This document shows, in pieces, positions 1,676 to 18,949 of a stretch of 64,000 bases of DNA (within the stretch, counting starts at the first letter, position 1; the number at the start of each line of letters is the position of its first letter). Location: IMG/VR virus record IMGVR_UViG_3300033068_000989, positions 32,163 to 96,162 of that record; one strand, written 5' to 3'. The DNA is from a virus (taxonomy: Duplodnaviria > Caudoviricetes). The position numbers and the translations under genes were made by a program. A model generated the notes under the pieces. It was not told the DNA's origin, made no database searches, and worked only from the letters and a program-made list of their open reading frames with translations.

Positions 1676-3114
1676 CAGAAATTGAGAAAAAAGCTAGGGA
1701 ATCTCTAGATAATTCCATACCTTTGTATAAAAGTTTAAGTAGATTGGAATTAATTAAATTTAAAAGAGCTAATCCACTGCCAAAAGTTGAACCAAAATTT
1801 GGTATAAATATAGAAATAGAACTTTGGTCTATTATAAATGACGCAGAATTAGCTGAAGTTATGTCAGCTATGGACATACCAGTTACTACCAGTTCACAAT
1901 ATACACAAAGTCCATATTCAAAATGGTACATGCATAGTGATCCCTCTATTAGAGTAGATCACGATAAAATACAAAAACTTTTACAAGAAAACAAATATCC
2001 TATAAAAATCAGCTTACAAAACGTACAATACAACCAATCAATCCCTGTTTTAGGTTGTGGTCGTAATGAAACACATATAAAAGAAGAGTATATTCCAGAA
2101 GATATTAAAAAAATAGGAAAAGAATTAAACAAATTTCTTATACAACAAAAAGAAGAATTGATAAAGAAATTTGGTAACGTTTATTCTACTGAAGCTTTTA
2201 AGTTAGTTCAAGAAAAAAAATTAACTACTGAAGTACCTGTCGAAAACAATGAAGACTGTATTTCAGAGACTTCATCAACCCAATCTTCGAAATCAAATAT
2301 AGCTTATAAATATTCTGCACAACCTATGGAGTTATCTTCTCCAACTATATATAACTTTAAAGATTTAAGAAAACTTTTCTACCTATTTAAACACAAAGGA
2401 TTTAAAAGAACTCCATTAATATTTATAGGACCTTCATGTGGTTTACATATTACATTTTCTATACCACCAGATTTACCTTTTTCAGAAAAAGATAAATATA
2501 TACAAAAACTCGTGGAAGTTTTTGTATCACTTGAATCACAAATAATGGACATAGTTCCTGATCACAGAAAACGTAATACATACTGTAAACCTTTGCACAC
2601 ACATACAGATCTAGAAACTGTTATTAGATATTCTAAACAAGAGAAATATTCTTCTTTATATGTCGGTAAAGATAGATTTGCTAAACAAGAATTTAGATTT
2701 GTAAATGCTACTTCAAATGTATCAGAAATTGAAAATTGGATATTATTTTTACAGCAAGTAGTAGAATATACTTTAACTGTATTAGATGAAAAAATATCAA
2801 GATTACATTTATTTGATGTAATTACTCACCCACTTTTACAAGATTGGTTTTTAACACGTAGGGAATTTCTAACAACTAAAGCTAAAATAGACATCGTAGA
2901 TTCTAAAACATTGACTACTACACCATATTTATTAACTAAACAACTAAGAGATGAAGAATCCAAAAGAAAACAACAATACAAACTTGCCGAAAAAAATAGA
3001 GCAATGAATAGTAGATCTTATAAAAGAGAATCAATTCTTAATATTAAGAGATCGAAGAACGCACAAAGCGCTCGGCGTAGGGTACGGAATGGACGGAATA
3101 ACACAGGTAACTAA
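1672..3114 (+). CDS. Putative amidoligase (Amidoligase_2-like)
   Basis: FGINIEIE, SDPSI, MELSSP, SCGLHITF, RNTYC, KYSSL, EFRF motifs. Confidence 0.78.
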   Translation: MTEIEKKARESLDNSIPLYKSLSRLELIKFKRANPLPKVEPKFGINIEIELWSIINDAELAEVMSAMDIPVTTSSQYTQSPYSKWYMHSDPSIRVDHDKIQKLLQENKYPIKISLQNVQYNQSIPVLGCGRNETHIKEEYIPEDIKKIGKELNKFLIQQKEELIKKFGNVYSTEAFKLVQEKKLTTEVPVENNEDCISETSSTQSSKSNIAYKYSAQPMELSSPTIYNFKDLRKLFYLFKHKGFKRTPLIFIGPSCGLHITFSIPPDLPFSEKDKYIQKLVEVFVSLESQIMDIVPDHRKRNTYCKPLHTHTDLETVIRYSKQEKYSSLYVGKDRFAKQEFRFVNATSNVSEIENWILFLQQVVEYTLTVLDEKISRLHLFDVITHPLLQDWFLTRREFLTTKAKIDIVDSKTLTTTPYLLTKQLRDEESKRKQQYKLAEKNRAMNSRSYKRESILNIKRSKNAQSARRRVRNGRNNTGN

Positions 3115-3410: not shown

Positions 3411-4100
3411 ATGTTTAATTTTACTAAAGTTGATGCAACATTAAACCGACTTAAAACAAAGTTTAATCAACTTAAAATAAACGAGTTTAAATGGATATCT
3501 GTTAGTATAAACATAATATTGATAATCACTATTATGCATCTTTACACAGATATAATGAATATAAAGCAACAAACAAAAGAAGATATTGATACTTTAACAG
3601 AGACACTTGATTATTATCAATGTAATGTCGATTCTTTATCTAACTTAGTTACATATAAGCATACTGTTAAAACAAAAGTATCTAAACAGACACAGAAGTC
3701 ACCACAAAAAATAAAGGAATCAACAATTTTACAGTTTGATTCTTTTAAGTGGTATAATTCAGTTGATGTTTACTTACATAAATCCATGTGTAAAGCACTA
3801 GATCAATATTCTGGTCCAGACAACATTTTAATCACATCTATGCGAAGAAAATGGTGTAAGCATTCTAAACACTTCACAGGAGAGGCAGTTGATATACAAC
3901 TAAATCAAAGTGGTAGAAATATGTTAGAATGGATGATATCAGAGGAAGGTAAACTTTGGTTAACGGATCACAACCTATTTTTCTATATAGAAGACAAGCC
4001 CGGTTCGTCAAAATTAAAGGAATTTAGAGAGAGATTTAGTGAATATATTTTTGAAAACAAAAATGCTACTGGTTTGCATATTCATTTAGCTAGACTTTAA
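3411..4100 (+). CDS. Membrane-anchored M15-like zinc peptidase (possible cell-wall hydrolase)
   Basis: N-terminal hydrophobic helix and coiled coil; ITSMRR...SKHFTGEAVDIQ...HIHLA gives the HxxxxxxD...HxH zinc-ligand pattern. Confidence 0.65.
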   Translation: MFNFTKVDATLNRLKTKFNQLKINEFKWISVSINIILIITIMHLYTDIMNIKQQTKEDIDTLTETLDYYQCNVDSLSNLVTYKHTVKTKVSKQTQKSPQKIKESTILQFDSFKWYNSVDVYLHKSMCKALDQYSGPDNILITSMRRKWCKHSKHFTGEAVDIQLNQSGRNMLEWMISEEGKLWLTDHNLFFYIEDKPGSSKLKEFRERFSEYIFENKNATGLHIHLARL

Positions 4101-8493: not shown

Positions 8494-9691
8494 ATCTGAA
8501 TTACAAGAAAAAATTATAACTAAATACATGACTGAGCTTCCTAGTAGGGGTACAATTATACTACCAACTGGTGTTGGTAAAACAAGAGTAGCTTTACAAA
8601 TAGTTGAAAATCTATTTGCTAAAAAACTAATTAAAAGTTGTCTTGTTGTTACCCCTACTACAGTCTTGAAAGACGATTCTTGGCCAGCCGAAATTAAGTT
8701 ATTGAATTTACAAGAATTAAATATAACAATAGAATGTAAGCAAACAGCTTATAAGTTTAAAGATAAATATGATATAGTAGTAATAGATGAAGTTCATTCT
8801 GCTCTATCTTCTGTACATGGTAAAGTGTTAAACATACCATGTACATATATGCTTGGATTAACTGCTACCTTACCAGAACATGATGAAGATCATTTAGAAA
8901 TTTTGAAAAAAAGATTACCAGTATTCTTCTCGATAAGTTTAAAAGAATGTGTGGAACAAGGAATAGTACCAAGTTTTAAAGTATTTAACTTAAAAGTTAA
9001 ACTAAATAAAAAAGAACGAGCTAAATATTCTATCTATGATAAAATGTTTAACCAAGCTACAGCAGAGTTGCAAACTTATAAAAATAAAATTCCAGAATAT
9101 AACGAATTATCTGTATTTGATTTAGCACAAAAAGCTTCTTCAATTAAGACACATCCCTTACACAAAATTGGTAAGTCATATTGGTCAGCCATGTCTATGA
9201 GAAAATGGGAATGTTATAGAGCAGAATCTAAATTAGAAACAACAATAGAAATAATTAAAAAATATCCCGATAAAAAGTGGATAGTTTTCTCAAAAGAGAT
9301 TAAATTTGTAGAAGAATTAACTCAAAAATTACTAGATATAAAAATAAATGCGTTAAAATATCATTCACAAATGAAGGATATTGATAGAAAATTAGTATTG
9401 GAATTAATTTCTAAACCTAAATATAAAGTATTAGTCTCCGCAGAAGCACTTAATGTAGGATATAACTTACCTGACTTGGATGCCGCCATTTGTGCATCAG
9501 GTGTTTCTACAGAATTAGTGGGTATACAAATGGTTGGACGTATTAATAGATATAAAAAAGGAAAAATACCTGTAATGATTAATTTAGTTTGTGATAATAC
9601 ACAAGAAATGAATTGGGTATCTAAACGCACAGAAAATATGTCACCAATTTGGACAGATAATTTAAATAAAATAAATTTAACAAAATGGTAA
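8486..9691 (+). CDS. Superfamily 2 DExH helicase
   Basis: LPTGVGKT, VVIDEVH, LGLTAT, LNVGYNLP, QMVGRINR. Confidence 0.92.
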   Translation: MTKSELQEKIITKYMTELPSRGTIILPTGVGKTRVALQIVENLFAKKLIKSCLVVTPTTVLKDDSWPAEIKLLNLQELNITIECKQTAYKFKDKYDIVVIDEVHSALSSVHGKVLNIPCTYMLGLTATLPEHDEDHLEILKKRLPVFFSISLKECVEQGIVPSFKVFNLKVKLNKKERAKYSIYDKMFNQATAELQTYKNKIPEYNELSVFDLAQKASSIKTHPLHKIGKSYWSAMSMRKWECYRAESKLETTIEIIKKYPDKKWIVFSKEIKFVEELTQKLLDIKINALKYHSQMKDIDRKLVLELISKPKYKVLVSAEALNVGYNLPDLDAAICASGVSTELVGIQMVGRINRYKKGKIPVMINLVCDNTQEMNWVSKRTENMSPIWTDNLNKINLTKW

Positions 9692-10710
9692 TATCTAATT
9701 ATGCTACAAGACAAAAATTAGCTAACTATTTAGAAAAAGGCATACTTCCAAAAGATCTACAAGATCATAGAAAAGGAGAATATCTAGAAGATTTCTGTCT
9801 TTTTTGTGGATTGGAGCATGATAACATTGTATTTACTAAGTCATCTTATGGTGGAACAGGACTTGATGTACATATTTGTGAAGAATGTTTTAATGTTTTA
9901 GAAACAAAAAATATAGGGTATCAAAAAATGTTAAATTTTCACACAGAATCAAATAGATTAAACAATCTAAAAGCCTATCAAAAAACTAAAACTATCGCTA
10001 CAGATAAATACTCATTTACAAAAGGAGGTGAAAATGAAGGTAAATGTATATTTTGTACTGAAGAGTGCATAGGTGTTCCGTGGACATTAGAATTGCCTGT
10101 AGAAGATAACCAATATTATTATGGTGGAGATACATCTGTATGTGATAGATGTTATGAATGGCTAATATCAAATAACGTAACTTTACAAGCTGACGCATTC
10201 ACAGATAAATGCCCTAATTGTGAAAAACAATATGGAGTTTCGGTGCAAATTTGGAAAATACGTGAAACACTTAACTCACTAGGGGCGCACATATGTCCAC
10301 ATTGTTATTATGAAACACATAAACCACTGTCAAATGTAGTGGAATATATAAATTGTGAGGTATGTGACCTAAGTATAGTACATGAAAAAACCCTATATGT
10401 ATCTAAAAATACACCTACAATATTTAAAAAGTACTGTGGTAAATGTGTATTAGCATCATATAGACGAGAAGAGGAAATAATAATAAAGCATATAATTAAT
10501 AATGTATATTTGAATATAGATCTACATGCTTATGAATACAGAATTCTATATTATTCTACAGAAAATAAAGAAATGCAGTTAATATTAGAACATAAATGCT
10601 CTAATTCTACACCCCCATTTCTTATGGCTCACCAAGCTTCTACAATGGTTTATAAGCTATTAGAAGAAAACAAAATTCCAAGACAACCACAACAGGGATT
10701 ACTTTTCTAA
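9685..10710 (+). CDS. Cys-rich zinc-finger protein of unknown function
   Basis: About eight CxxC pairs. Confidence 0.75.
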   Translation: MVISNYATRQKLANYLEKGILPKDLQDHRKGEYLEDFCLFCGLEHDNIVFTKSSYGGTGLDVHICEECFNVLETKNIGYQKMLNFHTESNRLNNLKAYQKTKTIATDKYSFTKGGENEGKCIFCTEECIGVPWTLELPVEDNQYYYGGDTSVCDRCYEWLISNNVTLQADAFTDKCPNCEKQYGVSVQIWKIRETLNSLGAHICPHCYYETHKPLSNVVEYINCEVCDLSIVHEKTLYVSKNTPTIFKKYCGKCVLASYRREEEIIIKHIINNVYLNIDLHAYEYRILYYSTENKEMQLILEHKCSNSTPPFLMAHQASTMVYKLLEENKIPRQPQQGLLF

Positions 10711-10744
10711 TAATCCTTTTGAATATAATCTATAAAAATAAAAG

Positions 10745-11311
10745 ATGATTGATGAGAATATAATGAACAAAATTATTGCATATGATTTAACACTAGATCA
10801 AGCATTTATACTATACTGTAAATCGTCAGGAGCTAAATTTCTTACATATTATAGGCCACCTGCTAATGAGTACGATAAATTAATATTCTATGAGTACTTA
10901 GGTATTAATAGAACACTTACAAAAAAAGGTGTAGATTTATGTAAAGAATTATTTTCAGAAGGTAATTATGACAAAAGTATAGACGATGCATTTGAAATTT
11001 GGTGGCAAACATATCCAAGTAATGATGCTCATGGAAATTACTCTGCAAGAAGATTGATTAGATCAGGATCTAAACAAAAAATAAAAGCACTTTATATTAG
11101 TGCAATAAATAAATATAAACTGTCTACAGATGATATGCTAAAGTCTCTGAAAAATGAAATTGAATTTAGAAAGAACGCATCTACTAAAGATAATACCCTT
11201 TCTTTTATGCAAGCTCCCACTAAATGGCTAACTGAAGAATCTTATTTATTAAATTACGGCTCATCTGAAAATACCTCTAAATTTTCAGAGTATGGAAAGA
11301 GCGTCAACTAG
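10745..11311 (+). CDS. Putative replication initiator / helicase-loader-like protein
   Basis: FEIWWQTYP...FMQAPTKWL pattern typical of phage replication-initiator C-terminal domains; directly upstream of DnaB. Confidence 0.5.
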   Translation: MIDENIMNKIIAYDLTLDQAFILYCKSSGAKFLTYYRPPANEYDKLIFYEYLGINRTLTKKGVDLCKELFSEGNYDKSIDDAFEIWWQTYPSNDAHGNYSARRLIRSGSKQKIKALYISAINKYKLSTDDMLKSLKNEIEFRKNASTKDNTLSFMQAPTKWLTEESYLLNYGSSENTSKFSEYGKSVN

Positions 11312-12299
11312 AAAGGGATTAAAAGTAGAACATTATTCAGAGAAAATAGAACAGGCTAAAGTGTTTATTCGTAAAAGAATGAATAATGAAGCTCCATCTT
11401 TAAAAACATCATTTAAAAAACTAAACGATGCATTATTTGAAGGATTTGAATGGAATAGAATTGTAACAATTGCTGGGTTAAGTGCCAGTGGTAAGAGTTT
11501 ATTATTATCACAAATACGTAGAGATGTGGTAGACTATAACCCTAATGAGAAACTGAATATCTTAGCATTTGAAATGGAGATGCTAGGGGTCGATCAAGTT
11601 TCGCGAGATATTTCTTCTAAGACTGACTTAACTACTCGAGAACTTTACTCTGCTGGTTCTAAGTTAACAGAACAACAATACGACACCGTATGTAAAACAG
11701 CTGATAAAATGAAATATTATCCTATATTCATTGTGGATGATGTAGGAACTGTAGATGAAATTGTTCATACGATCCTCAATTTCGTGGAGGAGAACAAACT
11801 AATCGAAGAAAATAGAGGACTAATTTGTACGTTTGACCACAGTTTATTAGTGAAAGGTACAGTAGGTGAAGATCAAGAGAAATTAATTATAGATAAGTTA
11901 TACAAGACATTAATTCAATTAAAGAAATATTTCGAAACCATAAAACTAAAATCTTTATTCATAGTTCTATCACAGTTAAACAGGAGTATTGAAGAACCTC
12001 AAAGGATTACTAATCCAATGTTACATTACCCTACCAAAAATGATCTATTCGCATCCTCAGCTGCATTTTATTGTTCAGATTATGTGATAATTACACATAA
12101 ACCAGCAGGTATAGAAGGACTTGGCTCATATTATGGGCCATCTAGAGGAGAGGATTATCCATACGGATTGCCAGTATTTAATCCTAAAGATCCTCAACGT
12201 GCTATGATTTATTGGCACATAATTAAAGCAAGGTTTTCTTCATCACAGATCCTTATGATGGTGGAGAATTTTAAACACTCTAAAATAGAGGAGTATTAA
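11292..12299 (+). CDS. dnaB: DnaB-like replicative helicase (RecA-fold domain)
   Basis: IAGLSASGKS, FEMEM, FDHSLL, LSQLNRSIE, IIKAR. Confidence 0.9.
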   Translation: MERASTRKGLKVEHYSEKIEQAKVFIRKRMNNEAPSLKTSFKKLNDALFEGFEWNRIVTIAGLSASGKSLLLSQIRRDVVDYNPNEKLNILAFEMEMLGVDQVSRDISSKTDLTTRELYSAGSKLTEQQYDTVCKTADKMKYYPIFIVDDVGTVDEIVHTILNFVEENKLIEENRGLICTFDHSLLVKGTVGEDQEKLIIDKLYKTLIQLKKYFETIKLKSLFIVLSQLNRSIEEPQRITNPMLHYPTKNDLFASSAAFYCSDYVIITHKPAGIEGLGSYYGPSRGEDYPYGLPVFNPKDPQRAMIYWHIIKARFSSSQILMMVENFKHSKIEEY

Positions 12300-12317
12300 C
12301 TAATTAAATAAACTAAA

Positions 12318-12428
12318 ATGAGTTTATCAGATTTTATAACACTTGTAGTAATAATTAATTTTGCTACAGTGTTTATCCGAATATGACTACTTAAAGTCAC
12401 AAAATGAATAAAAGAATTATTGGTATAG
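12318..12428 (+). CDS. Possible 36-aa membrane peptide with in-frame TGA codons
   Basis: MSLSDFITLVVIINFATVFIRI*LLKVTK*IKELLV; TGA at 12384 and 12405; A-rich leader. Confidence 0.35.
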
Positions 12429-13078
12429 TAGGTAAATCGGGAACAGGTAAATCTACTTCAATAGAAACACTTGATCCGAAATCTACTTATATTATTAATG
12501 TATTAGGTAAAGCCTTACCATTTAAAGGATCTGAAAAATTATATAACACAACAAATAAAAATATAGCAGATATTTCATCTTACGACCAAATCATAACTGT
12601 ATTAAAAAAGATATCAGACGACAGGCCTGATATTAAAACAGTAGTAATAGAAGATGCCGGATATATAATGTTCATAGAAGAGTTCAGAAGAGCTAATGAA
12701 ACAGGGTATAGCAAATTTTCGGACATGGCGAATCATATGTATCAAATAATGACTACTGCTAAACATTGCAGGGAAGATTTAAATATAGTTTTTGTATTTC
12801 ACGAAAACTTAGAAGTAAAAGATGGATATGGTCTAATAAGAGAAATCAAATTAGGTGGTAAAATGATTAAAGAAAAATTCTCTCCTGAAGAAAATCTAAC
12901 AATGATATTGTATACAAAGGTAGAGTATGATCCAGTTGCTAAACAAAGTAAATATTCATTTATCACTAATACTACGGATGTATATCCGGCTAAATCACCG
13001 AAAGGTATGTTCGATACATTCGAAATACCTAACGACCTTAATTACGTAATTAACAAGGCTAACGAATATTATTCGTAG
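12404..13078 (+). CDS. AAA-family ATPase (Sak4/AAA_24-like)
   Basis: GKSGTGKSTS Walker A, VVIEDAGY, PAKSPKGMF...IPNDL. Confidence 0.85.
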   Translation: MNKRIIGIVGKSGTGKSTSIETLDPKSTYIINVLGKALPFKGSEKLYNTTNKNIADISSYDQIITVLKKISDDRPDIKTVVIEDAGYIMFIEEFRRANETGYSKFSDMANHMYQIMTTAKHCREDLNIVFVFHENLEVKDGYGLIREIKLGGKMIKEKFSPEENLTMILYTKVEYDPVAKQSKYSFITNTTDVYPAKSPKGMFDTFEIPNDLNYVINKANEYYS

Positions 13079-13114
13079 TCTTTATTGAATATAGTGACTA
13101 AAAATTAATTCACT

Positions 13115-13693
13115 ATGCAAACTAATCTATTTGGAAAAGACCTCTTAAATAAAATGAATACAGGAGGAAATGGCACAAAAATACCGAAAGGTATTCACTC
13201 TAAAATTAAATTGAAGGATATCGAAATAACTGACACTTATGTCGATATATGGTTCGAGAATCCTGAAGATGGCAAGACCATAAATAAACGACTATGGATC
13301 CCAGATATAAACAAAACAACTGCTAAAGAAGGGATGTCCGTTCAGGAAACGATTGAACTTAGAGTACACCAAGCTCTTTATCATCTACTAGATCTATCAC
13401 AACATATGATAGGAACAGAAACAACTGCTAATATTCCTATAGGAGATTTAAAAAGTACTGCGGCAGCTATTAGAACACTACTAATGCCGTACAGTAATAG
13501 CAAGTTTCTAAATCTTAAAGTAGTTACAACACAAGACGGTAAATATCCAGAGATTTCTAACTTTGTAGGCTATCTAGAACCTTATGTAGAAGGTAAAGAA
13601 CCTACTCTTGAATTTAAACCATCGGAATTATCTAGGATGCATCAGTCATCTATTCCAGATATGCCCGCATCAGATACAACAAATATAGTATAA
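13115..13693 (+). CDS. Hypothetical protein, possibly ssDNA-binding
   Basis: Position between Sak4-like ATPase and primase; beta-rich N-terminus; function inferred from context only. Confidence 0.45.
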   Translation: MQTNLFGKDLLNKMNTGGNGTKIPKGIHSKIKLKDIEITDTYVDIWFENPEDGKTINKRLWIPDINKTTAKEGMSVQETIELRVHQALYHLLDLSQHMIGTETTANIPIGDLKSTAAAIRTLLMPYSNSKFLNLKVVTTQDGKYPEISNFVGYLEPYVEGKEPTLEFKPSELSRMHQSSIPDMPASDTTNIV

Positions 13694-13694
13694 C

Positions 13695-14744
13695 ATGAAA
13701 GGAAAAGATCTGTTTGAATCAATTTTAAACGAACAAAATATTTTGTTACGTATTAGTGATGAACAGATATTTTCTAGGTATATATGTAAAGTTCAAAACT
13801 CATTGTCTTCTCCATTTAGAGTAGATAAGAAGAACTCTTGTGGATTCTATAAGAATAATAAGGGTAGGTATATCTTGCATGACTTCTCTACTGGACAAAG
13901 TTGGGGAGCAATATATGCTGTAATGGAGAAGACTAAAATGAGCTATGCAGAAGTTCTTAAGATGATAAACAAAGATTTTGAATTGCGGTTAGATACTCTT
14001 AATCCTGTAAATAAAGTCAGAGAACTTCAAATAGAAGAAACAAAACCAGTAAATAACATATCATATAGTATTAAACCATACGAGAAAAAAGAAATAGAAT
14101 ATTGGGAACAATACGGAATTACTTCTAATACATTATTGAAATATGGTGTTTACTGTGTGCAGTCTGTACAGTTTGCAAATTCTTCTTGAAGAGCTACTAA
14201 AAATAATCCTATATTTGTTTACACCACAAAAGATCCAAAAGTATTTAAACTATATCGTCCATTATCAACTAATCAAAAATGGGCAGCAAAGACTAATAGG
14301 TATGTTATATGGGGGCTAACCCAATTACCTAATAAAGGAAGTTTATTAGTAATAACTAAATCATTAAAAGATGTAATGGTATTACATGAGTTAGGAATTC
14401 CAGCAATTAGTCCAGATTCTGAAGTAATTAATATTCCTAATAATATAATTAAGGAACTAAAAAAACGATTCAAGTATGTAGTAAGTATGTATGATTACGA
14501 TACAGCTGGTATAGCAGCTGCAACTAAATTAGATATACACTATATGTTTCTATTTAAAACTAAAGATATTTCAGATTATTATCAGAAATATGGTAAGTAT
14601 AGTACGTACAGAGTACTAAAAAAACTAATATCAAAATCTTATCATAGACATGAAAAATTCTTATTTCACCAAAACTTTATCAGACCTAGCCGACAAAATA
14701 ATAGGAAGTTTAGATTGGGATTCCAAAGAGATATACCCTTCTAA
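13695..14744 (+). CDS. dnaG: DNA primase (DnaG/TOPRIM), 349 aa with in-frame TGA at 14187-14189
   Basis: SPFRVDKKNSCGFY N-domain, EYWEQYGI, then *RATKNNPIFVY...KLYRP...LVITKSLKDVM...YDYDTAG; tracked ORFs 13695..14189 and 14376..14744 are one frame split only by TGA. Confidence 0.9.
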
Positions 14745-14880
14745 AGAAAATGTATTTAATATTTTAGACGATTTAAATAGATATAAATCTAAAGTTATAA
14801 TCATTGGTCAGGATCCGTACTACACACCAAACATGGCTACTGGCAGAGCATTTGATGTACCTGTAGGTACTACAAAACTT
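14650..14880 (+). pseudogene. ung: Uracil-DNA glycosylase family 1, N-terminal fragment
   Basis: IYPSKENVF...KVIIIGQDPY...ATGRAFDVP; similarity stops just before the expected PPSL motif. Confidence 0.85.
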
Positions 14881-14926
14881 AAACACAGCACTGCACCCTG
14901 CCTTGCGGCAAACGTGTGTTATGGGC
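14870..14926 (+). repeat. attC-like site 1 (right half only)
   Basis: Ends GTTATGGGC (14918-14926); left arm missing; acaaaactt at the ung junction also occurs in the loop of site 5. Confidence 0.6.
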
Positions 14927-14984
14927 TGCCGTTCTTTTTCGATATAGCTCTGGGAGGGCTTTGCAAAACCCACAATTAAATAAA

Positions 14985-15278
14985 ATGGTAGAAAACCAAA
15001 ATTTCGGACAAGCTATTGAAGCCTTAAAGCAAGGTAAGAGAGCAGCAAGACAAGGATGGAATGGAAAGGGAATGTTTCTCTTTTTGTTGCCAGCAGGAAC
15101 AGTACCAACCAAAGCAATTCACGACCCTGCATTAAGGGAAGTAATTGAGCAAGAAATTGGTGGAGAAACATTTGAAGCATTGGGAAGTATCCGAATGTTT
15201 ACAGCCGACAAAAAGATTTTGACTGGTTGGCTTGCTTCTCAAACTGATATTCTTTCAGAAGATTGGGTTATCCTGTAA
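14985..15278 (+). CDS. tad2: DUF2829 / Tad2-like anti-defence nucleotide sponge (cassette 1)
   Basis: NFGQAIEALKQGKRAARQGWNGKGMF...GWLASQTDILSEDW; ATG 14985 after an A-rich leader preferred to the tracked start 14916. Confidence 0.8.
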   Translation: MVENQNFGQAIEALKQGKRAARQGWNGKGMFLFLLPAGTVPTKAIHDPALREVIEQEIGGETFEALGSIRMFTADKKILTGWLASQTDILSEDWVIL

Positions 15279-15291
15279 AAATTGTGGGTTT

Positions 15292-15321
15292 CGTAGGACG
15301 GTCTTTCGGGGTCGTCTTACG
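15292..15321 (+). other. 13-bp hairpin with TTCG loop after the Tad2-like gene
   Basis: cgtaggacggtct-ttcg-gggtcgtcttacg, four G-T pairs, no U-tract. Confidence 0.6.
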
Positions 15322-15324
15322 GTT

Positions 15325-15391
15325 GCCCATAACGTTTTGGCTATGCGTTCGGCTGACGATAGGAAGCTGACGTATAGGTGTTGTTAACTAC
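15325..15391 (+). repeat. attC-like site 2
   Basis: GCCCATAAC...ctatgcgt[t]cggct / agctgacgtatag...GTTAACTAC; stem with one bulged T. Confidence 0.8.
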
Positions 15392-15424
15392 TGTGCGACT
15401 TTAATAATTAAAAATATAAATAGA

Positions 15425-15844
15425 ATGAAAAACTTACTTTGGTTAGATGATATTAGAAACCCTTTTTTAAATGAAGAGGGTAAAGTACCAACAGATAAAA
15501 ATGGTGAATACTACAATATAAACTGGGTTTTAAATTACGAACAGTTTGTAAAATGGATTGAAATTTTTGGGTTACCTGATGCAATTTCTTTTGACCACGA
15601 TTTAGCAGATGAACATTATACCCCTGAATACTTTTGGGATAATTACGAGGAAAGTAAAAAGTTTCAAGAATGGCGTGGCAAAAATTACCAAGAAAAAACA
15701 GGAATGGACTGCGCTAAATGGCTTGTGGATTACTGTATGGATAATAAAAAGAAATTGCCTGAAATATACATACACTCTGCAAATCCTGTTGGTGCGGATA
15801 ATATAAAAGGGTTGTTGGATAACTTTGCTAAGCATTGTAGTTAA
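15425..15844 (+). CDS. Cyclic-phosphate-processing receiver (REC)-like protein (cassette 2)
   Basis: LWLDDIRNP, ISFDHDL, KTGMDCAKWL, IHSANPVGADNI; stop codon inside GTAGTTAAC. Confidence 0.75.
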   Translation: MKNLLWLDDIRNPFLNEEGKVPTDKNGEYYNINWVLNYEQFVKWIEIFGLPDAISFDHDLADEHYTPEYFWDNYEESKKFQEWRGKNYQEKTGMDCAKWLVDYCMDNKKKLPEIYIHSANPVGADNIKGLLDNFAKHCS

Positions 15845-15931
15845 CAGGGCATTTACGCTGCCCCGTAATTGAAAAACAAAAGTTGAACAGCGAATTGTCC
15901 GCAGGGGTAGCGTAAATGCCTTGTTAGCGGA
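15837..15931 (+). repeat. attC-like site 3
   Basis: aacagggcatttacgctgcccc / ggggtagcgtaaatgccttgtt, 22-bp stem with two G-T pairs; ends GTTAGCGGA. Confidence 0.85.
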
Positions 15932-15947
15932 TGGTGCGGTAAATTAA

Positions 15948-16160
15948 ATGAAAATGGTAATTGAAAAAGAAATTAAAGTTGGAAGCAAATACAGATTTGT
16001 TTCACAAAGCATTGACGAAGTAGTAACTATTACAGAAAGTCCCATAAAAAATAGTAGAGGCTTTTTGGAATATGGAGCAAGAAACAAAGATGGTATTTAT
16101 CGCATTTGCTTCAATAACGAACTATTCAAATTGGAAATGTCAGATAGCACTTGCCGCTAA
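15948..16160 (+). CDS. Small hypothetical protein (cassette 3)
   Basis: 70 aa; stop codon inside GCCGCTAAC. Confidence 0.7.
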   Translation: MKMVIEKEIKVGSKYRFVSQSIDEVVTITESPIKNSRGFLEYGARNKDGIYRICFNNELFKLEMSDSTCR

Positions 16161-16243
16161 CGGACGGTAGGCAGTTTGGCGACAGTAGCCGAAGTGTTGG
16201 CATTGTGCGGTCGGGCAGCTTGCACAAAACCGCTGTTAGCTGC
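16153..16243 (+). repeat. attC-like site 4 (degenerate stem)
   Basis: GCCGCTAAC...GTTAGCTGC; inner pairing is broken into short hairpins (ttggc/gccga, ttgtgc/gcacaa). Confidence 0.65.
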
Positions 16244-16284
16244 TGCTGCGGTAGATTTAGTAGAAACTTAATTAAAAAACGAAA

Positions 16285-16845
16285 ATGGGAAGTATAAAAG
16301 GACAAAAACATAATCCATACATTGAGGGAAAGTATGCACACTTAAACCCGAATGATGTGGTATTTACGCCCGATTGGTTGGCGAAGCAGATTTGTGGGAT
16401 GTTTGATATTGATGGCAAAGTATTAGAGCCGTGTAAAGGTGAAGGTGCATTTTTGAAATACCTGCCTGAAAATACAGATTGGTGCGAAATTGCAGAAGGT
16501 AGGAATTATTATGACTATAACGAGAAAGTAGATTGGATTGTAACAAACCCACCTTACAGCGATTACAACCGATTTTTAGAACACTCATTTGCATTGGCAG
16601 ACAATATCGTATTACTTGTGCCTGTTGCAAAAATGTTCAAGAGTTTGGGAACTTTGAAACTGATATTTGAATATGGTGGGTTTGTATCAATACATACTTT
16701 ACCAGCAAGTAAGGCAGGTTTCCCATTCGGGTTTCCGTGTGCTGTTTATTATTTGAAACGTGGTTACAAAGGAGAAACTAAAATTGAAATGTTGCAATGT
16801 ATGGATAATGTTCAATCGGAGTTGTTCAGTAGCAGTTGCAGCTAA
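16285..16845 (+). CDS. Small amino (N6-adenine-type) DNA methyltransferase (cassette 4)
   Basis: VFTP, VLEPCKGEGAF (motif I), IVTNPPYS (motif IV); stop codon inside GCAGCTAAC. Confidence 0.85.
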   Translation: MGSIKGQKHNPYIEGKYAHLNPNDVVFTPDWLAKQICGMFDIDGKVLEPCKGEGAFLKYLPENTDWCEIAEGRNYYDYNEKVDWIVTNPPYSDYNRFLEHSFALADNIVLLVPVAKMFKSLGTLKLIFEYGGFVSIHTLPASKAGFPFGFPCAVYYLKRGYKGETKIEMLQCMDNVQSELFSSSCS

Positions 16846-16960
16846 CGTTTTGCGTATATACGCAGTGCAACGAAAACTTAATTTGAAACACAAAACTTGA
16901 AAATATATGAAAAATTTAATTAAAAAACTGAAAGCATTGCGTATATACGCAGTTAGCAGT
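16838..16960 (+). repeat. attC-like site 5 (loop contains a start codon)
   Basis: GCAGCTAAC gttt tgcgtatatacgcagtgc ... gcattgcgtatatacgca GTTAGCAGT. Confidence 0.85.
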
Positions 16961-17056
16961 AGTTGTGAACATTCCTTTTATAGATATGGTATTAGATACG
17001 GGAAAAATTTATATAGATGTAGTCATTGTGGAAAAGAAAAAAGCAATTACTGCTAA
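16907..17056 (+). CDS. 49-aa zinc-ribbon-like peptide starting in site 5 and finishing in cassette 5 (absent from ORF track)
   Basis: MKNLIKKLKALRIYA|VSSSCEHSF...YRCSHCGKEKSNYC; CxH...CxxC; stop codon inside ACTGCTAAC. Confidence 0.7.
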   Translation: MKNLIKKLKALRIYAVSSSCEHSFYRYGIRYGKNLYRCSHCGKEKSNYC

Positions 17057-17290
17057 CGTGCCGAGTGTAAACGTTAGTAAATTAAAATTATAGCACAAAT
17101 GACAAAAAAAGAACTGGCAAAGTGGCTTCACGATAATTACGAAGCAGTTGCAAAAGAACAAAATTGGAATACACAACAAAGTTGCAAGGTAGAGTTTAAC
17201 ACTTTGCCTGATGCTAATAAACGCACAATGATTGAGATAGCAGATAGGCTTCTTAATTTTAATTTATTGCGTTTACACTTTGTTATGAAA
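17049..17290 (+). repeat. attC-like site 6 with a ~160-nt protein-coding loop
   Basis: agtgtaaacg[t]tagtaaattaaaatta / taattttaatttattgcgtttacact, ~26-bp stem with bulged T; ends GTTATGAAA. Confidence 0.8.
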
Positions 17291-17380
17291 TCGTTGCCCG
17301 ATGATTACGAAATTTATCAAAAAGCACACGAGATTGACGAAAAAGACTTTGCTCAATGGATGTACGAACTATTTAGGTAG
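17099..17380 (+). CDS. Hypothetical protein: N-module inside site 6 fused to truncated cassette 6
   Basis: ORF crosses GTT (17282) in frame as Val (...RLHF|VMKS...); ends at the right junction with ung. Confidence 0.7.
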   Translation: MTKKELAKWLHDNYEAVAKEQNWNTQQSCKVEFNTLPDANKRTMIEIADRLLNFNLLRLHFVMKSLPDDYEIYQKAHEIDEKDFAQWMYELFR

Positions 17381-17496
17381 AGCGTATACTATCTAACTCT
17401 AAAAATTGCGGCACTTTCCCGCCATTTAGTGAGATAAATTGTTTTGAACTTGCAAATATTACATTAAAAATATTAAAAAAACCTATATTATGATAG
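17377..17496 (+). pseudogene. ung: Probable uracil-DNA glycosylase C-terminal fragment
   Basis: VERILSNSKNCGTFPPFSEINCFELANITLKILKKPIL-TGA-TAG resembles the UNG tail F...N.F..AN..L.....PI.W-stop. Confidence 0.6.
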
Positions 17497-17999
17497 AAAA
17501 ACATAAGGAGTTAGAATTATATACAATTAATAGGGGATGTTGTTTTGCATCCCCTTTTATATTTGTGTATGGAGCATTAAGAAAAGGACATGCTTTACAT
17601 GATAGATACATATCACCTAGTAGTATATATGTAGGTACATATAGACTGCAAGGATTTATATTAGGAGTAACTGATAGACTATATTCCTGTATGCATACGG
17701 GAAAAGAAACTGATTCAGTTGTTATAGAAATTTATAGAATTGACACTGATTTAAATGATCCATTTAAATCAGACAAGTCTATATATAAATTTGTAGATAT
17801 GTGTCAATGGAACTATAAACTAGATGTATTAGAAGAACGGTATAAAGTAGCTATAATTACAGTAGAGAAAGGTGCTATGCAAATTACAGGAAAATTATAC
17901 TTAAGTGAAAAAGTAAAAACATTATATAAAACTGGTGATGTAAATAATCCTAAGCATTTTGTAGATTATCCATTATTAACTATTAAAAAATCACAATAA
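17490..17999 (+). CDS. Gamma-glutamylcyclotransferase (AIG2-like)
   Basis: IFVYGALRKG..H motif, VVIEIY. Confidence 0.75.
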   Translation: MIEKHKELELYTINRGCCFASPFIFVYGALRKGHALHDRYISPSSIYVGTYRLQGFILGVTDRLYSCMHTGKETDSVVIEIYRIDTDLNDPFKSDKSIYKFVDMCQWNYKLDVLEERYKVAIITVEKGAMQITGKLYLSEKVKTLYKTGDVNNPKHFVDYPLLTIKKSQ

Positions 18000-18949
18000 T
18001 GAAATATTACCCACACTTCCTGGGAGGGAAATCATCAAAGATGAAGAGATACTTCAAGTTAAATAAAGAATTTCCAATAGGACATCCACAAAGATACCCA
18101 ATAGAAAATGCTTTGTTTCCATATAAAGTAGATATTTCTTTTGGAAGTACTAAGCCATCAGATAAACATGTATTAAGAATTAATACATCACAAGCAATTA
18201 AAAATTGTTCTAATAAAGTTTTAACTAAAAATATTCTAAAAGATAAGTGTCCTATTGTAACTAAATATGCTAAACTAAGTACATTCATAGTAGGCGATGA
18301 GTTACATATAGGTAAAATTAAAGAGCAAATAAGTTTTCCATTAGTAGCCAAACTAATATATGGATACGGTGGAATAGGAATGTACTTTATAAGCACATTA
18401 GATGACCTACTAGACTTTCTAGAAAGACAAAAAAATAATTTAAATAATTACTTTCTAGAAGAATATTTTAATACTACAAATGAGTATAGAGTACATATAT
18501 CACCTCTACTTAAAAATACTAAGATTCAATATAAATATGAGTATGGAGTACAAGTAAATGGTAAATGGGAAATTAAATTAAGTCTACCGAAAGTTTATGA
18601 AACTCGTGAAATTTTATCTGTTGAAAAGAAATTTTCTAATAATTCATTAATTAGAAACAGAGATAATGACGCAGTATTTTCTTCTAATTTTAGTAAACCA
18701 GATTGTTGGGAGAAATTAATTGAAGATTGTTTTAAAGCAGCTGAATTACTAGGCGTAGATTTCTGTTGTTTTGATGTACTATACAATAAAGACACAGGAA
18801 AATATGTAATCTGTGAAGCTAACTCTAATCCAGGAATGGATAACTCTATCACTAACTCATCTAAAAATATAACCGCACAACATTACCAACAAATGTTTCC
18901 CTATTTAATCACTAATAAATACTTAAAAGTATGTGCAGTTTCTTATTAA
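17999..18949 (+). CDS. ATP-grasp ligase (RimK-like)
   Basis: NKVLTK, FPLVAK..GYGGIGM, EEYF...EYRVH, LGVDFCCFDV, ICEANSNPGM. Confidence 0.85.
   Translation: MKYYPHFLGGKSSKMKRYFKLNKEFPIGHPQRYPIENALFPYKVDISFGSTKPSDKHVLRINTSQAIKNCSNKVLTKNILKDKCPIVTKYAKLSTFIVGDELHIGKIKEQISFPLVAKLIYGYGGIGMYFISTLDDLLDFLERQKNNLNNYFLEEYFNTTNEYRVHISPLLKNTKIQYKYEYGVQVNGKWEIKLSLPKVYETREILSVEKKFSNNSLIRNRDNDAVFSSNFSKPDCWEKLIEDCFKAAELLGVDFCCFDVLYNKDTGKYVICEANSNPGMDNSITNSSKNITAQHYQQMFPYLITNKYLKVCAVSY

Follow-up and report, generated by a model that had tools for sequence, protein, structure and literature searches.

The region described here lies in a window of 64,000 nucleotides, i.e. bases 32163-96162 of the 96,162-base IMG/VR virus record IMGVR_UViG_3300033068_000989, for which CheckV gives a completeness estimate of 95%. 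The gene content of this phage looks crAss-like and includes an open reading frame (ORF) of 6,419 aa. At window positions 14869-17380 lies an array of six gene cassettes, of which the first and the last are damaged and incomplete. The G+C content is about 0.27-0.31 around the region and 0.36-0.45 between 14.65 and 16.9 kb. A sequence-only reading had interpreted the region as an integron-like cassette array distinct from canonical attC arrays, and the comparisons reported here support this, as both the recombinase and the site design of related arrays differ from those of classical integrons.

All features of the array are on the plus strand. Unit A (14918..15333) opens with GTTATGGGC-TG-CCGT and closes with ACGG-TT-GCCCATAAC, arms that give 13 Watson-Crick pairs and one G.T pair at 15 positions, and it encloses an ORF at 14985-15278 which matches the Tad2-like family PF11195 (3e-22). 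Hairpin site 1 (15334..15382; -20.5 kcal/mol on the plus strand vs -6.1 on the minus strand) is part of cassette B, whose Unit B (15383..15845; GTTAACTAC-TG-TGC ... GCA-TT-GTAGTTAAC) encloses a cREC_REC ORF at 15425-15844 (PF20274, 3.1e-21). Cassette C is made up of hairpin site 2 (15846..15922), with a 23-bp stem (-42.7 vs -35.4 kcal/mol; inverted repeat I1, 91% complementary), and Unit C (15923..16161; GTTAGCGGA-TG-GTGC ... GCAC-TT-GCCGCTAAC), which encloses a 70-aa ORF at 15948-16160 without a match in Pfam or PHROG. Hairpin site 3 (16162..16234; -29.5 vs -17.6 kcal/mol) precedes Unit D (16235..16846; GTTAGCTGC-TG-CTGC ... GCAG-TT-GCAGCTAAC) in cassette D, and the enclosed ORF at 16285-16845 encodes an NPPY DNA methyltransferase (phrog_799, 2.8e-28). 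By eye, this hairpin resembles the one upstream of a related methyltransferase cassette (locus L001). In cassette E, hairpin site 4 (16847..16951; 5' arm and core TAACGTTTTGCGTATATA) holds in its loop the ATG (16907) of a 49-aa ORF (16907-17056) with a weak match to phrog_7696 (1e-4), most of which is contained in Unit E (16952..17057; GTTAGCAGT-AG-TTG ... CAA-TT-ACTGCTAAC). The last cassette, F (17058..17380), is decayed and consists of a 15-nt mini-hairpin, GTTAGTAAA without a matching TAAC arm and a 93-aa ORF (17099-17380) for which Pfam and PHROG searches gave no family match; only a partial inverted repeat (I6, 74%) is present. Several of these cassettes are likely to be counter-defence genes.

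Each of the five complete units starts with a sequence that is complementary to its own far end. The five GTTA-N5 / N5-TAAC pairs claimed by the sequence-only reading are all present, namely 14918/15325, 15383/15837, 15923/16153 (8 of 9 bases), 16235/16838 and 16952/17049, and every one of them lengthens to about 15 nt (GTTA-N5-[T/A]G-N3-4 opposite N3-4-TT-N5-TAAC) with position 11 always being a G opposite a T (5/5 units). The fixed extension that had been described beyond the first 9 bp, [A/T]G opposite TT plus 3-4 further pairs, is thus found in all five cassettes. Exact 9-mer pairs occur four times in the 2.5 kb of the array, where they are tiled with one per gene, vs three pairs, AT-rich without exception, in the remaining 61.5 kb; the pairing in the array is therefore beyond chance. 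As also noted before, the TAA of TAAC serves as the stop codon of four ORFs (15844, 16160, 16845 and 17056), the Tad2-like ORF being the exception. The cores (GTTATGG, GTTAACT, GTTAGCG, GTTAGCT and GTTAGCA) depart from the RYYYAAC/GTTRRRY consensus of canonical attC sites, in agreement with the earlier reading.

Inverted repeats of about 15 nt at the ends of every unit might suggest non-autonomous transposons (MITE-like, i.e. resembling miniature inverted-repeat transposable elements, or IS200/IS605-like) that are served by a transposase encoded elsewhere and insert next to TAAC, in which case the TAAC end of every unit could be the next target. The repeats, however, vary from unit to unit, which fits poorly with a single transposase, and no target-site duplication was seen. 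In addition, the sole enzyme consistently linked to such arrays is a tyrosine recombinase, HUH and DDE families not having been searched specifically. Among the explanations that we considered, this is the least probable.

The stem-loops noted between the units were borne out by folding with ViennaRNA: they have the form TAAC-g-arm-loop-arm-t-GTTA, are found at the junctions of all complete units, and each of them folds better on the plus than on the minus strand. Gene modules with stem-loops are also known from T4-type phages, where shuffling of the PeSL elements relies on the sequence homology of a repeated promoter plus stem-loop module. That system shares with the array small accessory genes of virulent phages, stem-loop modules between them and shuffling among relatives; the loops of the hairpins are AT-rich and no recombinase is encoded in cis, so that PeSL-like regulatory cassettes, moved by homologous recombination with the phage machinery, have to be considered here. 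However, the hairpins inside the window array differ widely and share no extended sequence, only a core of 4-5 nt being common to the sites, and the unit-specific complementary ends are left unexplained, as is the dedicated recombinase of the sister arrays described below. We regard this explanation as very improbable.

Inside the arms of Unit A, a perfect 12-bp inverted repeat (14966-14977 / 15280-15291) forms a second, inner stem around the Tad2-like ORF. The hairpin loops at 15865-15900 and 16870-16935, like those in five related loci (L001, L006, L011, L038 and L054), often hold AAGCAC[A/T]A and ACTTGAAAA-like words and in many cases the ORF that follows has its start codon within the loop; these may be sites for promoters, for ribosome loading or for a regulator.

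Sister arrays and the mobile unit

Relatives of the methyltransferase and cREC proteins of the window are encoded on many unrelated IMG/VR contigs, and a subset of them lies in arrays that are built alike. Two cassettes of the window were not met at any one locus: elsewhere, those for cREC and the methyltransferase have different neighbours and are never found together. Methyltransferase homologues with 74-88% identity carry the cores GTTAGCTGC, GTTATATGC and GTTACCTAC, each with its complement at the far end of the unit, and the differences therefore represent compensatory change.

Units were searched for with a strict finder that combines a regular expression with a pairing requirement and was controlled with reversed sequence. 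In the first 149 loci (817 kb) all 49 units that it detected were on the gene strand, and the reversed sequence gave two. Exact copies of the 18-nt word formed by the core and arm of hairpin 4 of the window are present in more than 119 viral contigs of IMG/VR; GTDB has 29 contigs with such a copy, about 18 of them with the label Bacteroidota. The 119 viral loci that were fetched (982 kb) contain 337 units with 232 distinct arm pairs, vs 11 in the reversed control, and at least one strict unit is present in 105 of these 119 hairpin 4-selected loci, with the family consensus GTTA[T/G]NNG[C/T][A/T]GT. When loci were instead chosen by their recombinase (see below) and filtered for the 9-bp match only, position 11 was a G.T pair in 55% of the pairs vs 6% in the control, and positions 12-15 were Watson-Crick pairs in 53-70% vs 24-33%. 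As these unselected positions still pair, the extension pattern is not made by the filter.

Comparison of loci indicates that the cassettes are mobile. Cassettes that are 100% identical occur in differing contexts (L226/L263 and L226/L280), the identity running from just after TAAC, through hairpin and gene, to the next TAAC. The homology of Unit B with its counterpart in locus L011 spans GTTA to TAAC exactly. Among homologous bodies at different loci, 43 pairs share the upstream hairpin alone (27 when the selection hairpin is left out) and none the downstream hairpin alone, whereas both hairpins are shared in 29 pairs and neither in 45. From this asymmetry and from the end of the identity at TAAC it follows that the cassette, as judged by these alignments, is the hairpin plus the GTTA..gene..TAAC segment, with the hairpin upstream of the gene, and that the crossover probably falls within the shared TAAC(G), i.e. 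at TAAC| on the gene strand, which equals G|TT on the other strand. The sequence-only reading had placed integration at G|TT, as in integrons; this stands for the non-gene strand and is refined here to TAAC| on the gene strand, the hairpin being an upstream part of the cassette. The other reshuffling expected by that reading, the same cassettes next to other neighbours and in other contexts, is found as well, with identical cassettes breaking at TAAC|. Seen from the other strand, the geometry is that of an integron (G|TT crossover, site at the 3' end of the cassette) with the cargo ORFs then being antisense.

Simulated circle junctions of cassettes B-E each form one continuous hairpin that is 6-10 kcal/mol more stable than in the array (-15.7 vs -7.8 kcal/mol for cassette B), and the plus strand beats the minus strand in each case. 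That the joined ends form one stabler hairpin would therefore account for the ends of each cassette matching each other and not those of the neighbour.

In phage arrays the cargo ORFs are on the better-folding strand in 97% of the units (304/313), the G.T pairs are confined to the coding strand (49 vs 0 units in the first set of loci), and the start codon of the gene is located in the hairpin loop in 132 of 304 units. Together with the better folding of the plus strand, these features are what one would look for in RNA elements only, i.e. long-range 5'-3' stems and hairpins in 5' untranslated regions that process, stabilise or regulate the cistrons, the mosaic having arisen from ordinary recombination. 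However, the identity between cassettes ends exactly at a core of 4-5 nt, a tyrosine recombinase is tied to the arrays by position and strand, and the cargo ORFs of bacterial arrays are opposite the G.T strand. In addition, an Rfam search with the window region and four related loci gave no meaningful match. An explanation by RNA elements alone is thus highly unlikely.

The sequence-only reading had also proposed a system of Bacteroidota phages. Arrays are indeed present in hundreds of phage contigs, but the system is not confined to phages, as Bacteroidota chromosomes carry arrays beside the same recombinase. In genomes labelled as metagenome-assembled genomes (MAGs) and bearing arrays, a loose version of the junction pattern matched no more often than its control, and the annotated array-bearing MAG contigs look like phage DNA (M15 peptidase, a lectin-fold tail-like protein, Tpt1).

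The recombinase of the sister arrays

The absence of an integrase, already stated in the sequence-only reading, holds for the whole 96,162-base record, in which a search with PF00589 revealed no tyrosine recombinase; tblastn likewise gave no trace in this 96-kb genome of the small recombinase described in the following. Such an enzyme, which that reading had suggested looking for elsewhere, was found with a home-made Xer profile: recombinases of 265-297 aa are encoded in nine hairpin-selected loci, eight of them distinct. In seven of the eight the gene is located just 3' of the last unit and on the same strand, the eighth (L254) being a locus without a strict unit, and an AT-rich TAAC-TATTATATATAA-like stretch precedes the gene. 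The association was also seen from the other side. In 80 viral loci for which homology to the recombinase was the only criterion, 224 units are upstream of the gene on its strand vs 1, 3 and 1 in the other three positions. Upstream DNA was sufficient in 56 of these loci, and 52 of them have at least one unit, with a median gap to the recombinase of 74 nt. More than 544 viral relatives of this enzyme were found. Judged by position and strand, the small recombinase at the TAAC end of the sister arrays is most likely the array enzyme.

Its nearest relatives, as far as profile and structure matches can tell, appear to be XerA and IntI. In NCBIfam it scores 165-200 bits with XerA_Arch (NF040815) and 150-176 bits with the integron integrase model TIGR02249, both below the cut-offs (265 for TIGR02249), and the best PDB match is the XerA-like 4a8e (E 2e-38). 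An alignment with VchIntIA skips residues 188-264 of that protein against 27 residues of the query, so that about 50 residues fewer are present in a segment which we take to hold the IntI-specific insertion.

XerA, XerC and XerD provide the best matches in sequence and structure databases and have the same size and two-domain layout. The substrate of Xer enzymes is one dif site of 28 bp in double-stranded DNA. The array recombinase, unlike them, is associated with long hairpin sites in arrays, the 224 units being on one side of it, and scores below the curated Xer cut-offs. A further comparison is offered by the pdif modules of Acinetobacter plasmids, in which gene modules lie between inverted XerC/D sites that are conserved 28-bp duplex sites. 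Discrete modules, inverted sites at their bounds, varied contexts and a Xer-type enzyme acting in trans are common to both; the array ends differ in being unit-specific and co-varying, with long hairpins between the units.

Close relatives of the recombinase (E <= 1e-60) are encoded in 133 of 401 sampled Bacteroidota genomes. In longer stretches, arrays were found on megabase contigs with the recombinase at the TAAC end, and the cargo ORFs of these bacterial arrays are not on the G.T strand but on its complement, as in the classical integron order. A chromosomal example beside the small recombinase (locus L468, G172:C1 992000-1011700, positions 9098-18789) contains GmrSD, Schlafen/AlbA_2 with HATPase_c_4, an HNH nuclease and a LinB-like nucleotidyltransferase, which by homology are predicted to be defence- and resistance-type cargo.

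These arrays share with integrons, including clusters of attC sites lacking integrases (CALINs), mostly single-gene cassettes, hairpin sites with an AAC/GTT core, crossover at the core and one strand that folds better, as well as the cassette start being complementary to its own far end (5/5 here, 232 arm pairs elsewhere). A tyrosine recombinase of the Xer/IntI clade is located at one fixed array end, beside a non-hairpin, attI-like AT-rich site, the cargo consists of defence and resistance genes in bacteria and of methyltransferase and counter-defence genes in phages, and orphan arrays are common. CALINs in phages have been described before, and some of their sites are substrates of IntI1, including attC sites of a Polaribacter phage (PMC9892861). 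Very few integrons were found in Bacteroidetes with IntegronFinder 2.0 (PMC9024848).

The array might accordingly be a fragment of a classical integron with divergent attC sites, made and moved by a host IntI and acquired by the phage from a host integron, and the AAC/GTT cores, the hairpins between genes and the complementary cassette ends speak for this. The recombinase of the sister arrays, however, is 265-297 aa long, lacks about 50 residues in the long VchIntIA segment and falls below the TIGR02249 cut-off of 265 bits. The cores deviate from RYYYAAC/GTTRRRY, and the ends pair over about 15 bp outward with a fixed [A/T].T plus G.T step. In the phage arrays, the hairpin comes before the ORF, the ORFs run towards the recombinase, and recombinase and cargo have the same direction; the classical order, with attC 3' of the ORF and the ORFs pointing away from attI and integrase, is met in the bacterial but not in the phage arrays. 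In addition, Polaribacter phage P12002L, a published CALIN carrier, is without any such unit. A classical fragment is therefore very unlikely, although more probable than each of the other alternatives discussed.

In four bacterial loci (L465, at about 14235-14350, L467, L468 and L469) the stretch from the last TAAC to the recombinase stop begins with TAAC-T[CT]A[TC]TTATA, and in L465 two copies of an 11-nt word (TATAGGTCTCA) lie within it, reminiscent of the accessory repeats at attI. One contig, assigned to a Flavobacterium MAG by its label (L181, 333-4390), contains an array with large ORFs (776 and 160 aa) opposite the G.T strand, i.e. in the bacterial orientation.

Other recombinases were considered as array enzymes and rejected. 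Two of 11 viral records with arrays encode arm-type phage integrases (PF17293 and/or PF13102 SAM-like); these lie at a distance from the array end or show no relation to it, and one of them has an HTH_17 gene nearby. Xer genes of housekeeping size in five array-bearing MAGs have no units nearby. In the 72.7-kb phage G001 (locus L153, 60001-72722), a NUMOD4-HNH-AP2 homing-endonuclease gene (2295-3020) lies directly before the first array hairpin, with an arm-type integrase and an HTH_17 gene just before it; between this first hairpin and the first full cassette is a GC-rich, apparently structured stretch of about 330 nt (about 3660-4000) without a match in Rfam.

The edges of the array in the phage genome

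To the left, the array adjoins the N-terminal third of a family-1 uracil-DNA glycosylase gene (14650..14868, plus strand), which is broken at this edge. In an alignment, residues 22-72 of the fragment correspond to residues 32-82 in UNG proteins of solved structure (E 2.7e-8), positions 37-84 of the 227 positions of the phrog_12143 profile are matched, and the similarity ends at about codon 73, so that the left gene corresponds to the first 73 codons. As the similarity stops at the left edge of the array, the array interrupts or replaces part of this phage gene. The edge itself (14869..14917, plus strand) reads as a remnant of a hairpin site without a TAAC core on its left; no complete stem can be drawn here, and the G+C content rises.

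The right edge abuts what may be remains of the same gene. A possible C-terminal relic of the glycosylase (17380..17496, plus strand), which is not confirmed and would end with a TGA read as Trp, presumably resembles the C-termini of UNG proteins, and its translation has no PHROG or PDB match. The window, and likewise the phage record as a whole, lacks the small recombinase and the AT-rich attI-like site of the sister arrays, and the window array is therefore an orphan.

No close relative of the phage was found in a search with the downstream 316-aa protein that was aimed at an array-free glycosylase gene, and blastn of the region against phages gave short cargo matches only. Upstream of the glycosylase fragment, a primase-like gene (13695-14744) is split into ORFs at 13695-14189 and 14376-14744, the second with a Toprim domain, with an in-frame TGA near 14187 between them; sparse recoding of TGA to Trp is a candidate explanation for this split.

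Origin and meaning of the array

Taken together, we consider it likely that positions 14869-17380 represent an orphan, CALIN-like array of an integron-like system which is widespread in Bacteroidota phages and chromosomes, is driven by a small recombinase and is, in this phage, either served in trans or frozen. The case for this is built on the architecture of the array, the covariation of the unit ends, the mobility of the cassettes, their breakpoints and the link to the recombinase.

In the mechanism that we propose, a cassette would consist of a hairpin site followed by a gene segment that starts with GTTA-N5-[A/T]G-N4 and ends with N4-TT-N5-TAAC, and exchange of cassettes would occur at the core common to them all, which reads TAAC| on the gene strand and G|TT on its complement. 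The ends of a cassette would be complementary because they are neighbours in an excised circle, where they would lengthen the hairpin to one long folded site with the fixed G.T pair on one strand only. Folding would take place in single-stranded DNA, with a choice of strand, and the enzyme would be the 265-297-aa tyrosine recombinase of the sister arrays. As this phage has no recombinase gene, its array would either have been built elsewhere and now be frozen or be served in trans by a co-resident phage or the host; it would have landed in, or replaced part of, the uracil-DNA glycosylase gene.

Several observations weigh against this interpretation. Most arrays are without a recombinase in cis, and strict units lie no more than 2 kb from the 3' end of the gene in only five of the 20 best bacterial matches of the recombinase. 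The upstream hairpin, too, is unshared in 45 of the 88 informative pairs, and the 45 pairs sharing neither hairpin include all comparisons with the cREC and methyltransferase cassettes of the window. Exchange at |GTTA, perhaps rarer, may thus also occur, or the hairpins perhaps turn over by another route. The same structures may act in mRNA. An all-vs-all comparison of the proteins of nine array-bearing phage genomes revealed nothing in common but cargo. Finally, no circle, excision junction or rearranged form came to light for this particular array, and no close relative of the phage was found.

Going further, we lean slightly towards regarding the system as a second integron lineage. It would be characterised by a small recombinase of Xer-like type that is missing the long segment of VchIntIA, and by another folded-site design, in which the hairpin stands beside an outer stem that co-varies, spans about 15 bp and includes a fixed G.T pair. 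With it, Bacteroidota would bank defence and resistance genes, their phages, crAss-like ones among them, would bank counter-defence genes by means of the mirror-image form, cassettes would pass between hosts and unrelated phages, and orphan arrays would be served in trans at co-infection. No description of this combination of recombinase and site design was found in a literature search, whose coverage is incomplete, so that novelty is not proven.

For the crAss-like phage itself, an array of this kind explains the odd block of higher G+C content by which a gene of the replication module is interrupted. Integrons are the textbook example of cassette exchange; in Bacteroidota they have been regarded as rare, and in phages as marginal. 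The arrays described here suggest a parallel system which standard integron finders may miss because the recombinase falls below the integrase cut-off, with about 50 residues fewer, and the cores are off RYYYAAC/GTTRRRY. If active, the system would help to explain how Tad2-like, cREC and orphan methyltransferase counter-defence genes are shared among unrelated Bacteroidota phages, and it would serve as a simple marker by which new defence and counter-defence genes, being its cargo, could be found.

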